Assembly (NCBI GenBank): GCA_965248695.1 | Contig: CBDFKD010000002.1 | Span: forward strand, 64,001 to 128,000 | Direction: 5' to 3' | DNA from: Acidobacteriota bacterium | Lineage (GTDB): Bacteria; Acidobacteriota; UBA890; WLXD01 | Length of the DNA: 64,000 bases | Translations under genes and position numbers: made by a program | Notes under the pieces: generated by a model | What the model saw: the letters and a program-made list of their open reading frames with translations, nothing else | Told to the model about the DNA's origin: nothing | Databases searched by the model: none | Part shown: piece by piece, positions 2,802-25,905 of the stretch | How the letters are laid out: the number at the start of each line of letters is the position of its first letter | How positions within the stretch are numbered: position 1 is the first letter of the stretch

Positions 2802-2874
2802 TGGCGGTGGAGGGACTTGAACCCCCGACTCGGCGGATATGAGCCGCCTGCTCTGCCGACTGAGCTACACCGCC
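2802..2874 (-). tRNA. tRNA with CAT anticodon (probably elongator tRNA-Met; Ile2 not excluded)
   Basis: GGCGGTG TAGCTCAGTCGGCAGAGCA GGCGG-CTCATAT-CCGCC GAGTC GGGGG-TTCAAGT-CCCTC CACCGCC A; complete cloverleaf, CCA not encoded. Confidence 0.93.
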
Positions 2875-5176: not shown

Positions 5177-5701
5177 TCAGGACGCCTTGAGATCGCGCGC
5201 CGCATTGCGCGCCTCGATGCAATCGTCCAGGGCCGTTTCGACGTCCCCTTGCACGATCTCCTCGGTGCGGTTCTGCACCATGGCGATCTCGGAGATGATC
5301 AGACCCTTCGCCTTGTCGTACATGCGCTTCTCCCGATAGGAAAGCGCCTTGCGCTGCGACAGGTGTTGCAGGTTCTTGAGAACGTCAGCCATCTCGAAAA
5401 GATGCCCTGAGCGCATCTTCTCGGCGTTTTCCTTGTAGCGACCCTTCCAGTTGCTGTGGGTCTCGAAGTTGTGATCACGCAGATGCTTGAACAGCCTTCG
5501 GATCTGCGTCTTGCCGAAGATCTTGCGGAGTCCGACCGCCTTGGAGTTGCCGACCGGAACCATCACCGTGGTTTCGTTCGCGAATAGCCGGAGGTGGTAG
5601 AAGTCCTGGTCGAGACCGGCGATTTGGGTCTGCTTGACTTCCTCTATGATCCCCACGCCGTGGTTCGGATAGACGACATAGTCGCCGACTTCAAAGCGCA
5701 A
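5177..5701 (-). CDS. carD: CarD family transcription factor
   Basis: FEVGDYVVYPNHGVG, MVPV...GLR, NWKGRY and LIISEIA motifs; TTG start after AGGAG. Confidence 0.92.
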   Translation of the reverse strand: MRFEVGDYVVYPNHGVGIIEEVKQTQIAGLDQDFYHLRLFANETTVMVPVGNSKAVGLRKIFGKTQIRRLFKHLRDHNFETHSNWKGRYKENAEKMRSGHLFEMADVLKNLQHLSQRKALSYREKRMYDKAKGLIISEIAMVQNRTEEIVQGDVETALDDCIEARNAARDLKAS

Positions 5702-5756
5702 ATGGATCTCCTGATGTTTACGAGCGGGCTGCTGCAGAACGTGCGGGAAGTTCCTT

Positions 5757-5785
5757 AGTATATTCGAAAATGAGGCAAAATTCAA
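5757..5785 (-). promoter_or_regulatory. sigma70-type promoter of carD
   Basis: TTGAAT-N17-TATACT on the minus strand in an AT-rich patch. Confidence 0.7.
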
Positions 5786-5866
5786 CGCCCGGATCAGCCC
5801 GTAGAGCCCACCGCTACGGGCGGTTTCAGGATTCTCCGGCCCTGATGTGCAGCCTGCGGCATCCGG

Positions 5867-5894
5867 TTGACAAGCGCGGCCCGGCGACCATAAT
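5867..5894 (+). promoter_or_regulatory. sigma70-type promoter firing into the ORF-free structured region
   Basis: TTGACA (5867-72)-N16-CATAAT (5889-94). Confidence 0.7.
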
Positions 5895-5897
5895 CAG

Positions 5898-6187
5898 GGC
5901 GGTTCGGGCGATCCTCATGGCCGCGCGGCGCGCGCCTGCGATCTCCGGCAACAACAATCAGGTAATACCGGCTCGCAACATGGCTCGCCCGAAAGGGCGC
6001 CAGTAACACCGGTGTGCGGCGCAGCCCCGACCGCATATCGGGCGGGAGGCTTACTGGTCGGCTTCCGAAGCCATGCGCGCTCCGGTGTGAACGTGGCCGA
6101 AAGGGGCAGACCTCGTTCCGCGCCTGGTTGGCCGGTGCCGCTTGCCGCATCGCGAGGAGGCTGTTCGCGAGGATCGCCCGTTCCGTC
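5898..6187 (+). ncRNA. Candidate ~290-nt structured non-coding RNA, family unrecognised
   Basis: Closing helix 5905-16/6169-80 (12 bp, perfect); nested helices 5945-49/6131-35, 5955-62/6123-30, 5965-71/6082-88, 5979-85/6069-75, 6000-06/6051-57; two GAAA-capped hairpins; own promoter; no credible ORF. Confidence 0.7.
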
Positions 6188-8412
6188 TACTGGAGGGCGT
6201 CGCGGCTCGCCGGTGGGGTACCAGCGACCCGTGAGTCGGCCGCCGCGCGCAGGCTGGTCGCGGCCGCGACGAGCTCGACCGTAGCCGTCCGCATCGATGT
6301 CGCCAGATCGTCGAGCTCGACCGCCAGGGCAGCACCGTCGCCATCCCGCAGCGCGCGCTGAACTCCGGGCAACAACTCGGACGCATAGAGGTCGCCGTCG
6401 GACGGCGCGTAGACCAGGTTGTTGAACCATGGGCGCGCCGCGAGCCCACCGGCCCGCGTGAAGGCTCGTTCGACCCGCAGCAAATGGTCGTTGACCGGTT
6501 GCAGCCCCGCCGCTATCCGACCCACAGAATTCTTTTGCAGTGTCAGACGGGTATGCGCCTCGAGCTCACCGGCGGCGGCCGCCAGACGACCGAGGGCACG
6601 CCATACAAGCTCGGTGCCAGCGGTACGGGCGTTGGCCCCCGGACCGGCGAGAGCGGCATCGACGTTGCTCAGCGCCGTAGCCAGCTCTGCGGCCTGATCA
6701 CGGTAATCCAGCGGCAGCACGTCCGCGCTTGCCAGGCGCCAGCCGAGCACCGCCGCCAGCGCCGCTACGGCGCGGTGCTGCCGGTAGCCGGGATCGCCGA
6801 ATCGCTCCACGAAGGTGTTGGTGTCATACGCCGAGTGGTACACGCCTGAGCTTCCCGAAAACCCGAAGCTCATGGTCGGCACACCGAGCACAGCAAAGAA
6901 GGGTGCGTCATCAGAGCCGCCAGCCGGGAGCGATACGCGCGGCTCACCGCTGGGAAGCATGGCCGCCCGCCGCCGCCAGGAGTCGTAGACGGTGGTGGTC
7001 GGCAACGTCGGGTCGGCGACCACCTTGGATGTATCGCGGATGAGGGTGCGCAGCGAAGGCGACGCCGTGGCGGAGAAATAGGGGCCACCTACGACACCGT
7101 CGAGATTGATATAGGCGACGGCGGAGTCCCGTAGCTGATCCGCGTACGCCTCCGTCCACTCGGTGGAACCGATCAACCCCCACTCCTCTGCGTCCCACGC
7201 AGCGAACAGAATGCTACGCCGGGGCGGCCAGCCGGCGGCGCTCAGCTCCGCCAGTACGCGCGCCGACTCCAGTAGAGCCACCGTGCCCGAGAGGTTGTCC
7301 ATCGCCCCGGCCGTCCAGGAGTCGTAGTGCGCCCCGAGGATTACCCACTCGTCCGGACGCTCCCGCCCGCGAAGCGTCCCGACAACGTTGCGGATGCGTC
7401 GCATCGGAGCGTCATCGAGCTCGACCCACACACGCGCCCTGACGCCGCCGAGGCCGACGTGATAGCGAAACGGGAGGGCTCCCTGCCAACCTGAGGGCGC
7501 TTCGGCGCCTTCCAGGTGTTGCAGAAGCTCGGCTGCCGAGGCGTAGCTCAACGCGACGACGGGGATCGAGGGCAAGGGCGTTGCGGGAACTTGCTGAGCG
7601 GCCGCGGCAGCGCCGACGGTCGCTGGCAGTCCGGGCGTGTTGGGGTCGCCCGGTGGTCCCGTACGTACGGAGCCGCGCTGCACCCCGGTCCACGGCCGGT
7701 ACGGACCACGCGGATAGACGTCGCCGCGGTAGTAGCCGTCGTCGAACGGATCCGAGTACAGGAGCACCGCCGCCGCACCGGCGGCTTCGGCGTTGCGTAC
7801 CTTCGCACCGCGAAACACATTGCCGTATCGCATCACGACGATCTTGCCGGTGACATCCGCGTTCAGTGCTCGGAGAGCGGTGAAATCCGCCGTCGTCCCA
7901 TAGTTGGCGTAGACCACGCCGGCTTCCACGTTGCCGGCTGCCGAGTACGCCGCCACTGCCGGATACCGACTGGCGTCACTGTCGGGGTCGTCGGTCAGTG
8001 GTTCCTCATCGAGGGTCAGCGTCAGCGGAGCCGGCGTCAGGCGGTCGACGCGCGCAGCGCGCGCGTGCGGCAATAGGACGTTGTACTCATGAACCTTGAC
8101 GTCGAGGCCCCAGCTCGTCATCCGATCGGCGATCTTGCCGGCGGCGCGCGCCGCTGCCGGTGTGCCGGCCACCCGCGCCTCGCCCCCAAGCTGCTGCGCC
8201 AGAGCGCGCAATCGGTCAGCATCGGGCGTCGTCGCGAGGCGTTGCTCGCGCTCGATGGCGGCCCCCCAAGGAGCCTGGAACCCGCGTGGGCCGGACACCA
8301 GCGGTACCTCGCCCCGTCCGGGCAACGCCGCCAGCAGCATCATCGCAGCCAGGAACCCGCGCAACGCGGCACGTGGCAAACTGGAGATGGTCCGTCGTTC
8401 GGTCGACAACAT
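6187..8412 (-). CDS. M28 family peptidase, glutamate carboxypeptidase II/transferrin-receptor-like (PA + dimerisation domains)
   Basis: Signal peptide; VYANYG, QRGSV, GAHYDSW, GAMDN, WDAEEWGLIGSTEW, GSDD and YHSAYD motifs. Confidence 0.92.
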   Translation of the reverse strand: MLSTERRTISSLPRAALRGFLAAMMLLAALPGRGEVPLVSGPRGFQAPWGAAIEREQRLATTPDADRLRALAQQLGGEARVAGTPAAARAAGKIADRMTSWGLDVKVHEYNVLLPHARAARVDRLTPAPLTLTLDEEPLTDDPDSDASRYPAVAAYSAAGNVEAGVVYANYGTTADFTALRALNADVTGKIVVMRYGNVFRGAKVRNAEAAGAAAVLLYSDPFDDGYYRGDVYPRGPYRPWTGVQRGSVRTGPPGDPNTPGLPATVGAAAAAQQVPATPLPSIPVVALSYASAAELLQHLEGAEAPSGWQGALPFRYHVGLGGVRARVWVELDDAPMRRIRNVVGTLRGRERPDEWVILGAHYDSWTAGAMDNLSGTVALLESARVLAELSAAGWPPRRSILFAAWDAEEWGLIGSTEWTEAYADQLRDSAVAYINLDGVVGGPYFSATASPSLRTLIRDTSKVVADPTLPTTTVYDSWRRRAAMLPSGEPRVSLPAGGSDDAPFFAVLGVPTMSFGFSGSSGVYHSAYDTNTFVERFGDPGYRQHRAVAALAAVLGWRLASADVLPLDYRDQAAELATALSNVDAALAGPGANARTAGTELVWRALGRLAAAAGELEAHTRLTLQKNSVGRIAAGLQPVNDHLLRVERAFTRAGGLAARPWFNNLVYAPSDGDLYASELLPGVQRALRDGDGAALAVELDDLATSMRTATVELVAAATSLRAAADSRVAGTPPASRDALQ

Positions 8413-8493
8413 TGGGGCACACTAGAGTCCCCGGAAGACAAACTCAAAGCAGGGCGGCCACGCATGACCGTGGAAGGCTATCGACTTGGAAAA

Positions 8494-8509
8494 CGTCGGT
8501 ATACCGACG
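8494..8509. promoter_or_regulatory. 16-bp palindrome, probable activator-binding site (UAS)
   Basis: CGTCGGTATACCGACG is a perfect palindrome; a related GTCGGTAT half-site follows near 8525; ~120 bp upstream of a -24/-12 motif. Confidence 0.5.
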
Positions 8510-8624
8510 ACTGTCCGAAAACGGTGTCGGTATTTGAACGCTTGCTGCCGTCCGCGACAAGCTACGGTTCCGCGCTCGGCCCGTCACCACGGGCTCGGAG
8601 ACCGCGGGCGTGCAACCCGACCGT

Positions 8625-8640
8625 CGGCACGAAGCTTGCA
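8625..8640 (+). promoter_or_regulatory. sigma54-type (-24/-12) promoter
   Basis: CGGCACG-AAGC-TTGCA, i.e. GG-N10-GC matching TGGCACG-N4-TTGC. Confidence 0.65.
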
Positions 8641-8727
8641 GACATATCCGGTGGGTCGAGGTTGATGGGTTCGTCCGCTGCCGCACGCCACGGCGCGTCG
8701 GGCGTCCCCAATCGGAGGATGGTTCGA

Positions 8728-9546
8728 ATGAGCATCACTTGGTCTGAGATTCTCGACCGCGGTCGTCGACATCTGGCCTCGGGCTGTCGAGCGACGGCGT
8801 TAGGCGCGCTGCTGGTGCTCGTTCCCGCCGTGGCGCTGGCGGCCCCTGACGATGAGCCCGAGCCCACCGGCACGACACAAGGACCGGACTTCCGATTCAG
8901 TGCTCCGCGCAACACGCTGGGGATCCGTGTTGGTTACGCCTTCAACCGCGCCCAGGGCGAGATCTTCGATTTCTTGACCGACGAGCTGACGCTCGAGCCG
9001 TCCGACTTCAAGGGCGGGATCGTGGCGCTCGATTTCGGGTTTCGGATCTCCGACCGGGTCGACCTGGTGGCCGGTTTGGAATACAGCCGCACGAGCAAGG
9101 TCTCGGAATACCGCGACTTCGTCGACCAAGACGACATTCCGATCGTTCAGGAGACCGAGCTGACGCAGCTACCGCTGACGCTGAGCTTGAAATGGTACCT
9201 GGGATCGCGCGGCCAGCGTGTCGGTCAGTACGCCTGGGTGCCGCGGCCGGTCGTCCCCTACATCGGCGCGGGCGGCGGCTTCACGTGGTATGAGTTGAAG
9301 CAGGCTGGTGAGTTCGTCGATTTCCGCGACTTTGCCATCTTCCAGGACACGTTCACCTCAGACGGCTTTACCGCCGCCGCCCATGTGTTCGCTGGGCTGG
9401 ACATCAAGCTCACACCGTCCATCGGACTGATCATCGACGCGCGCTACCATTGGGCAAACGCTGATCTGAAAGACAGTTTCGTCGGCTTTGCGCCGATCGA
9501 TTTGAACGGATTGCACGCCACCGCGGGTGTGGCGTTCAAGTTCTAA
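8728..9546 (+). CDS. Outer-membrane beta-barrel protein
   Basis: Signal peptide, amphipathic beta strands, VVPYIGAGGG, C-terminal ...AGVAFKF; GGAGG RBS. Confidence 0.8.
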   Translation: MSITWSEILDRGRRHLASGCRATALGALLVLVPAVALAAPDDEPEPTGTTQGPDFRFSAPRNTLGIRVGYAFNRAQGEIFDFLTDELTLEPSDFKGGIVALDFGFRISDRVDLVAGLEYSRTSKVSEYRDFVDQDDIPIVQETELTQLPLTLSLKWYLGSRGQRVGQYAWVPRPVVPYIGAGGGFTWYELKQAGEFVDFRDFAIFQDTFTSDGFTAAAHVFAGLDIKLTPSIGLIIDARYHWANADLKDSFVGFAPIDLNGLHATAGVAFKF

Positions 9547-25821: not shown

Positions 25822-25905
25822 GCCGAGGTGGCGGAATTGGCAGACGCGCCGGACTCAAAATCCGGTGGGCTTACGCTCGTGAGGGTTCGAGTCCCTCCCT
25901 CGGTA
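25822..25905 (+). tRNA. tRNA-Leu(CAA)
   Basis: GCCGAGG TGGCGGAATTGGCAGACGCG CCGGA-CTCAAAA-TCCGG, long variable arm, GAGGG-TTCGAGT-CCCTC CCTCGGT A; CCA not encoded. Confidence 0.97.

Follow-up and report, generated by a model that had tools for sequence, protein, structure and literature searches.

A probable gene for a large structured RNA divergent from carD in one class of Acidobacteriota

What is encoded in the gap between carD and the gene of an M28 peptidase in this genome of an uncultured Acidobacteriota bacterium, and what might its product do? The first-pass annotation of the window (the whole stretch of DNA that was analysed, 64,000 nucleotides long) had read the gap as an unrecognised structured RNA transcribed divergently from carD, and as a free-standing, possibly undescribed class of non-coding RNA. 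That reading is upheld by the presence of a dedicated promoter, a conserved fold and the lack of a match in Rfam. The segment is very probably a free-standing gene whose product is a stable, highly structured non-coding RNA of ~270-290 nt (~340-350 nt in the sister family), transcribed on the + strand from its own strong sigma-70-type promoter and belonging to an uncatalogued family restricted to one small class of uncultured Acidobacteriota.

Organisation of the carD locus

The features of the locus, numbered from the first letter of the window, are the following.

5177-5701 (-): carD, encoding an RNA-polymerase-binding factor (Pfam CarD_TRCF_RID 1.7e-16, CarD_C 4.6e-26)
5757-5785 (-): promoter-like site that fits carD (9/12, consensus match only)
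5867-5894 (+): promoter of the RNA gene (11/12; box pair common to 16/16 loci)
5901-6190 (+): structured non-coding RNA of ~285-290 nt, ends inferred (fold, covariation, single copy, no Rfam match)
6187-8412 (-): gene of an M28 peptidase with PA and TFR-dimer domains, convergent with the RNA gene (context)

The TTGACA-N16-CATAAT promoter that had been proposed to point into the gap was recovered by a promoter scan, with its boxes at 5867-5872 and 5889-5894 separated by a 16-nt spacer. Two promoter-like sites were found between positions 5600 and 6400 versus 0.2 expected from shuffles. The spacing of the boxes places the probable start of transcription near position 5901. A GGTTGAC(A/T) sequence followed at equal spacing by a -10-like box is found upstream of the closing helix of the RNA in all 16 loci read. 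The RNA promoter and the promoter-like site of carD are arranged back to back, ~80 bp apart. The initiation codon of carD is the TTG at 5701, located behind an AGGAG sequence, while the start of the longer ORF at 5785 is not used. carD adjoins the RNA gene in divergent orientation in each of the 16 RNA-bearing loci, which are distributed between two families, and it is the sole neighbour kept in all of them. The M28 peptidase gene found beside the RNA in the window is not conserved in the second family.

The gap closes at the stop codon of the convergent peptidase gene, as first described. The gene that follows the RNA is convergent, and carD divergent, in the window and in 12 other loci of its family; the layout of a riboswitch or cis-acting leader (same strand, upstream of the controlled gene) is absent from this set. 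Because the next gene is convergent, nothing connects the RNA with a gene that it could regulate in cis. A side observation concerns the window ORF 8089-9546 (+): the C-terminal part of its product resembles an outer-membrane beta-barrel whose last residue is phenylalanine, and a similar gene appears to lie downstream of the RNA in loci of the sister family.

The gap had also been described as devoid of a credible ORF. Four mechanically defined ORFs overlap the RNA and none of them (0/4) matches Pfam. A small protein was considered and rejected: the sole AUG-initiated frame in the window's RNA is missing from another genus, where CUG stands in place of the AUG, single-base indels separate close relatives, and Pfam is blank.

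Predicted fold, covariation and coding strand

The minimum-free-energy (MFE) fold of positions 5895-6190 of the + strand has a free energy of -158.1 kcal/mol (z = -4.17), and none of 200 shuffled sequences is as stable. The minus strand folds less stably than the + strand (-147.1 kcal/mol, z = -3.41). The predicted architecture is a rod that ends in a three-way junction, one arm of which bears a four-way junction. It is composed of the elements listed here.

5905-5916 (+): P1, 5' strand of the 12-bp closing helix (120/120 cells paired in 10 sequences; two pairs change on both sides)
5917-5922 (+): P2, 5' strand ATGGCC, pairs with 6159-6164 (14 G-U versus 0 A-C cells)
5924-5949 (+): P3, 5' side of a variable irregular helix, pairs with 6131-6157 (MFE fold)
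5955-5962 (+): P4, 5' strand CAATCAGG, pairs with 6123-6130 and closes the three-way junction (covariation)
5965-6088 (+): main arm, P5-P10 (MFE fold)
5965-5971 with 6082-6088 (+): P5 (MFE fold)
5979-5985 with 6069-6075 (+): P6 (MFE fold)
5986-5999 (+): hairpin P7 (MFE fold)
6000-6006 with 6051-6057 (+): P8 (100% paired; 4/7 pairs covary; 13 sequences)
6009-6041 (+): hairpin P9 (92% paired; 13 sequences)
6042-6050 (+): invariant bulge GCGGGAGGC of the main arm
6058-6068 (+): hairpin P10 (MFE fold)
6089-6118 (+): P11 side arm, outer stem GAACG/CGTTC around a GGCC-loop-GGGGC(A/C)GAC module (local folding)
6153-6168 (+): 3' purine-rich element GAGGAGGCTG with the P2 3' strand and a 4-nt bulge (invariant columns)
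6169-6180 (+): P1, 3' strand, followed by a weak T-rich tail (6181-6190)

The two ends of the RNA pair with each other, the segment 5905-5916 (CGGGCGATCCTC) being the exact complement of 6169-6180 (GAGGATCGCCCG). Every helix listed from inspection of the sequence is present in the MFE fold of the + strand: CCGGC/GCCGG, CAATCAGG/CCTGGTTG, ATACCGG/CCGGTGT, the four-way junction (5979-6075) and the side arm (6089-6118). Two of the earlier proposals were retained in part. TGTGCGG and CCGCATA, put forward as an alternative pairing or a pseudoknot, do pair in the MFE fold, where they form an ordinary nested hairpin and not a pseudoknot. The four-way junction, described as free of unpaired linkers, has this form in three genera, the window's included, and does not have it in a fourth, where P7 and P10 are weak as hairpins and distant segments may pair in an alternative helix. 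The linker-free junction is thus lineage-specific, since the small hairpins P7 and P10 yield to this possible long-range helix in one genus.

The length from P1 strand to P1 strand is 268-281 nt among the members and ~275 nt in the predicted fold. A clear T-run follows the closing helix in other genera, the tail of the window being only weakly T-rich, and no canonical hairpin terminator was found in the window by a simple terminator scan. In five loci of one genus (L008, L009, L010, L060 and L064) the P2 3' strand and the bases that follow P1 (AGGCC...GGCCU) could form a local hairpin before the T-run; such a hairpin might act as a terminator during transcription, before the long-range P1 helix forms.

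Covariation was assessed in two alignments. In a plain MAFFT alignment of 10 sequences, with slid partners and shuffles as controls, 83.0% of the cells are paired at the 101 pairs of the window's own fold versus 33.7-43.1% for slid partners and 29 pairs change on both sides versus 11-19, values that 0/500 shuffles reach, in a test biased toward structure by a fold that comes from one member. In a core alignment of 13 distinct sequences (60 pairs), itself biased in the same direction by having been fitted to the model, the paired cells amount to 84.2% versus 30.2-39.7% and the pairs that change on both sides to 30 versus 6-12. The promoter, the fold and the T-run are retained in 13 distinct relatives. 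The covariation and the conserved gene order that the first-pass annotation had proposed to look for are therefore both present, the latter as the adjacency to carD in 16/16 loci.

The elements differ in their conservation. Seven of the nine P4 pairs change on both sides (13 sequences), while the P5/P6 region is 71% paired in the core alignment and P3 aligns poorly between genera (64-73% of cells paired). The main arm is the best-conserved stretch in BLAST comparisons, with 82-88% identity over 46-56 nt between genera. P11 folds alone into a matching two-tier hairpin in 14 of 16 sequences; its outer stem differs between the two families and its inner module is retained. The P2 5' strand region (5917-5922) includes a nearly invariant GGCCGC, and the 3' purine-rich element reads GGGAGGCCG in most relatives. 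Invariant bases cluster in unpaired positions: the ACACCG junction, the P9 loop AGCCCCGAC, the GCGGGAGGC bulge, the P11 module and the 3' GGGAGGC(C/U)G. GGGAGGC is invariant in the 6042-6050 bulge, and most members, as well as the RNAs of the sister family, have a second copy of it close to the 3' end; this 3' copy varies, with GCGAGG in one member and GAGGAGG in the window. Two further motifs were considered and discarded. An H-type pseudoknot between the P9 loop and the GGGAGGC bulge was rejected by reasoning on geometry, a single linker base having to span a stem of 11-13 bp, and a K-turn in P11 was rejected by reading, the tandem G-A pairs being absent.

A location of the RNA on the + strand, which had been proposed from GNRA loops and G-U pairs, is supported by the promoter conserved in 16/16 loci, the T-run of other genera, GNRA-type loops and the G-U excess. 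The firm helices P1, P2, P7, P8, P9 and P11 contain 39 G-U versus 6 A-C cells, which favours the + strand; over the whole structure the excess is modest (82 G-U versus 52 A-C) and is clear only in the well-aligned helices.

Distribution, transcript signal and known RNA families

The host class comprises 26 species genomes, which belong to a single order and two families. The RNA is present in 13 of the 26 and was found nowhere else in the searches described here, carried out with BLAST and with a covariance model of a 180-position core. In the window's family 10 of 11 genomes carry it, the window's own included. In the remaining genome (G008, 71% complete) 245 nt separate carD from the peptidase gene, with no RNA between them (locus L052), which suggests a clean loss of the RNA gene. 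Of the 15 genomes of the second family, 3 have the RNA in a longer form (336-352 nt), located at the equivalent site and divergent from carD. This variant is preceded by a TTGACA promoter and closed by another 12-bp helix, and it shares with the window's family the GGCC-loop-GGCC-GAC hairpin and an identical GGGAGGCCGCT at the equivalent place, before the closing helix. The RNAs of the two families have only parts of their sequence in common, and no convincing shared structure was identified between them beyond P1, P11 and the 3' element. The carD loci of three other members of the second family (G012, G014 and G016) contain no RNA.

Outside the class, the core covariance model gave nothing credible in 150 sampled genomes of the phylum, a search whose prefilter scored 17 candidates per genome versus 104 in the class, so that distant variants could be missed because few candidates were scored. 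A 23-bit match in another family (L051) lies inside a histidyl-tRNA synthetase (hisS) ORF and was dismissed as a false positive. A strict core pattern found 6 contigs among ~186,000 species genomes, all of them Acidobacteriota metagenome-assembled genomes (MAGs), and 5 contigs in JGI metagenomes, of which 3 are new and distinct, 1 is a duplicate and 1 is identical to a known genome. In a set of 401 genomes from the phylum, a loose pattern (P11 module plus GGAGG) gave matches as often as its backward control did, and the true P11/GGAGG motif was found among them in known members of the class only. The carD loci of three other families without detectable 6S, inspected in one genome each, contain no such RNA: a tRNA gene is present in one of them and protein genes in the other two. 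The position of the RNA is occupied in locus L101 (G031), which belongs to a different Acidobacteriota family, by a tRNA gene that has a long variable arm and is divergent from carD.

The lack of a transcript had been named as a point that would speak against the RNA. Six metatranscriptome runs from two studies share a few sampled words with the stretch, and contigs of four of them were aligned. Two sponge metatranscriptomes of one study have one contig each, of 254 and 253 nt, which align over their full length on 5908-6161 with 93% identity to the window and depths of 16.9 and 45.7. Two marine metatranscriptomes of the other study have contigs of 151-161 nt on the conserved core, the deepest at 36-51, whose flanks are unlike the window. 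The RNA-matching sponge and marine contigs stop short of carD and of the peptidase gene; other pieces, which are short, have a depth of ~2 in carD (one marine run) and 3.1 in the peptidase gene (one sponge run). These contigs from the RNA libraries of relatives, which cover the RNA and not its flanks, are a hint, rather than proof, of a discrete and abundant transcript: they show neither ends, strand nor level and may include contaminating DNA.

Comparison with Rfam agrees with the initial reading of the RNA as unrecognised. At the gathering thresholds of Rfam 15, the 64-kb window gives only two tRNAs, both located away from the RNA. A permissive search (E <= 10) of positions 5650-6300 gives two matches at chance level (E = 1.2 and 3.3), with scores of 19.1 bits (threshold 55) and 16.3 bits (threshold 112). 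The signatures of RNase P, SRP, tmRNA and 6S had also been reported missing. The first three RNAs are encoded elsewhere in the genome, over cut-off (290 bits for RNase P, 70 bits for SRP and 167 bits for tmRNA), and the 6S model (RF00013) has no match at E <= 10 in the region and none in the whole genome. The element has a single match in the 5.89-Mb assembly, which goes against a dispersed REP, REPIN or MITE, a possibility raised at first pass. A full-text literature search found no description of the RNA. We rate it as an undescribed family, absent from Rfam 15 and without a counterpart found in that search.

Two side observations arose from these searches. The two window tRNA genes, 2802-2874 (-) and 25822-25905 (+), are its only Rfam matches, and the first also gives a weak sub-threshold match to the tmRNA model, as tRNA-like sequences do. 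The small bacterial SRP model has two matches over cut-off in the genome, at G000:C2:2283459-2283558 (69.9 bits) and G000:C2:2816376-2816463 (52.8 bits); a second SRP-like RNA would be unusual.

Possible roles and comparison with known RNAs

The RNA may well act in trans as part of a protein-RNA particle, a general mode for which we consider the case to be evenly balanced. The RNA, whose 5' and 3' ends are brought together by the 12-bp helix, probably ends after it; in such a particle the P1-P4 rod would hold these ends together and shield them. The head, formed by the P5-P10 arm and the P11 hairpin, would offer invariant, mostly unpaired purine-rich surfaces for binding, namely GGGAGGC present twice and the GGCC-loop-GGGGC(A/C)GAC hairpin. 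The likeliest single partner, proposed tentatively, would be the transcription machinery, that is RNA polymerase with or without CarD, the RNA being then a stand-in for 6S or Ms1.

By analogy, the RNA is perhaps tied to transcription control. In favour of this link, carD is the sole neighbour that both families retain and no canonical 6S is detected in the class; against it, the predicted fold is not 6S-like. The Rfam 6S model matches 0/26 genomes of the class versus 95/140 sampled Acidobacteriota outside it, a difference to be read with the low sensitivity of this model, which detects 6S in only 4-5 of 14 control genomes. Other families of the phylum are also low in detectable 6S (f20 0/10, f7 0/4, f8 0/3, f24 0/3 and f30 1/9), and 6S is found in most of the remaining ones. 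The RNA is not the general 6S replacement of the class because only 13/26 genomes carry it and several carD loci are without it; it is absent from well-assembled members. The linkage to carD could reflect gene order inherited within one class. As these points go against a simple 6S replacement, the reading on which we settle is that of a trans-acting, protein-binding RNA.

The RNA might also be an orphan ribonucleoprotein component that binds or scaffolds proteins unrelated to transcription, next to carD by inherited gene order, a possibility to be kept with reserve. It fits the invariant unpaired purine-rich elements repeated two or three times, the two-tier hairpin found across both families, the fold unlike 6S and the fact that about half of the class does without the RNA. 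It suffers from the lack of a linked candidate partner gene, carD being the only conserved neighbour. CsrA is the best-known protein titrated by GGA-rich RNAs, and a CsrA sponge of the CsrB/RsmZ type is excluded because Pfam finds no CsrA in the genome (0 matches; 96% complete); the RNA has just two or three GGA-bearing elements. The same invariant nucleotides, concentrated outside the stems of a multi-branched RNA of more than 250 nt, at its junctions, bulges and loops, would be expected if the conserved junctions and loops formed the active site of a large ribozyme or ligand-binding RNA, and bacterial RNAs with such traits often proved to have sophisticated biochemical roles. This idea is nevertheless improbable: covariation supports no long-range tertiary pairing (the possible pairing of GCCCC in the P9 loop with GGGGC of P11 survives in one variant only via G-U pairs), the peripheral hairpins P7 and P10 vary or disappear, the interior of the sister-family RNA is very different, and no substrate-related gene is linked.

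We give little credence to a regulator acting by base pairing, in which the exposed, Shine-Dalgarno-like GGGAGG or the C-rich P9 loop would target mRNAs or the 16S rRNA 3' end. The invariant GGGAGGC of the bulge and its second copy would suit this role, but the inconstancy of that 3' copy does not, and an RNA of 270-350 nt with ~100 base pairs is far larger and more ornate than typical base-pairing small RNAs. The idea that the element is a mobile or repetitive palindrome (REP or MITE), that it leads a neighbouring gene, or that it arose by divergence from a housekeeping RNA (6S, RNase P, SRP or tmRNA) retains next to no probability and is considered refuted. The position of the element directly after a stop codon would agree with such origins; yet it is single-copy in 5.9 Mb with a fixed place in 16 loci, has its own promoter and, with a convergent next gene, nothing to lead, and the housekeeping RNAs are encoded elsewhere while Rfam gives chance-level matches at E <= 10.

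Few bacterial RNAs of more than 250 nt have a conserved multi-junction fold and, to our knowledge, all those that have been solved are ribozymes, ribonucleoprotein cores or polymerase regulators. The adjacency to carD in a class without detectable 6S turns the trans-acting, protein-binding reading into a concrete question, that of binding to RNA polymerase or to CarD. Whether types of polymerase-binding RNA exist beyond 6S and Ms1 is described as an open question by a recent RIP-seq study (PMC11077062). It is unlikely that the RNA represents a third kind of polymerase-associated regulatory RNA after 6S and Ms1, differing from both by its branched fold, with a gene back to back with carD, and acting with or against CarD in a class that would have lost canonical 6S. 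Should the polymerase idea fail, it would still be a well-defined new orphan RNA family of an uncultured lineage. Its interest is real, not exceptional, pending a demonstrated function.

The closest terms of comparison are found among polymerase-binding and orphan RNAs. 6S is an unbranched rod of ~180 nt whose large central bubble imitates an open promoter; it binds the sigma-70 holoenzyme and templates product RNA, and 6S-flavo (RF01685) is a lineage-specific variant of it. The RNA described here resembles 6S (RF00013) in being apparently stable and abundant, with paired ends and its own strong promoter, and by analogy it could take the place of the 6S that goes undetected in the class. It differs from 6S by its ~100 nt of additional length, by a predicted fold that is branched and lacks the large central bubble, by the lack of a match to 6S models and by its absence from half of the class. 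Passages of the literature on Ms1 present it as a ~300-nt RNA of Actinobacteria that binds the RNA polymerase core, with a 6S-like structure formed by a central bubble and two short terminal hairpins and with genes of an HAD-IB hydrolase and an oxidoreductase as neighbours (PMC9130861). As far as this study and a second one go, the likeness to Ms1 extends to a size of ~300 nt, a highly structured, free-standing and abundant RNA, a lineage in which canonical 6S is missing or hard to find, and a poorly conserved sequence within a conserved gene neighbourhood (PMC9130861; PMC4191392). The length of 268-281 nt fits Ms1, whereas the predicted fold branches at a three-way and at a four-way junction, and the neighbours are here carD and the M28 peptidase gene in MAGs of Acidobacteriota. 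No sequence or model similarity to Ms1 was seen in the Rfam search.

OLE, raiA, GOLLD, ROOL and IMES are large structured bacterial RNAs of the orphan type, identified through comparative genomics and metatranscriptomics. Among motifs of Acidobacteria, Acido-1 and Acido-Lenti-1, both included in Rfam, are listed in passages of Weinberg et al. 2010 (PMC2864571). The present RNA has in common with such orphan RNAs, as outlined in part in that study, a complex conserved fold, a narrow taxonomic range, uncultured hosts, a presence in environmental RNA libraries and a function unassigned at discovery. It has no Rfam match to OLE, raiA, GOLLD, ROOL, IMES, Acido-1 or Acido-Lenti-1. What sets it apart from these orphan RNAs is its fixed divergent site beside carD, together with its repeated GGGAGGC and GGCC-loop-GGCC-GAC modules.
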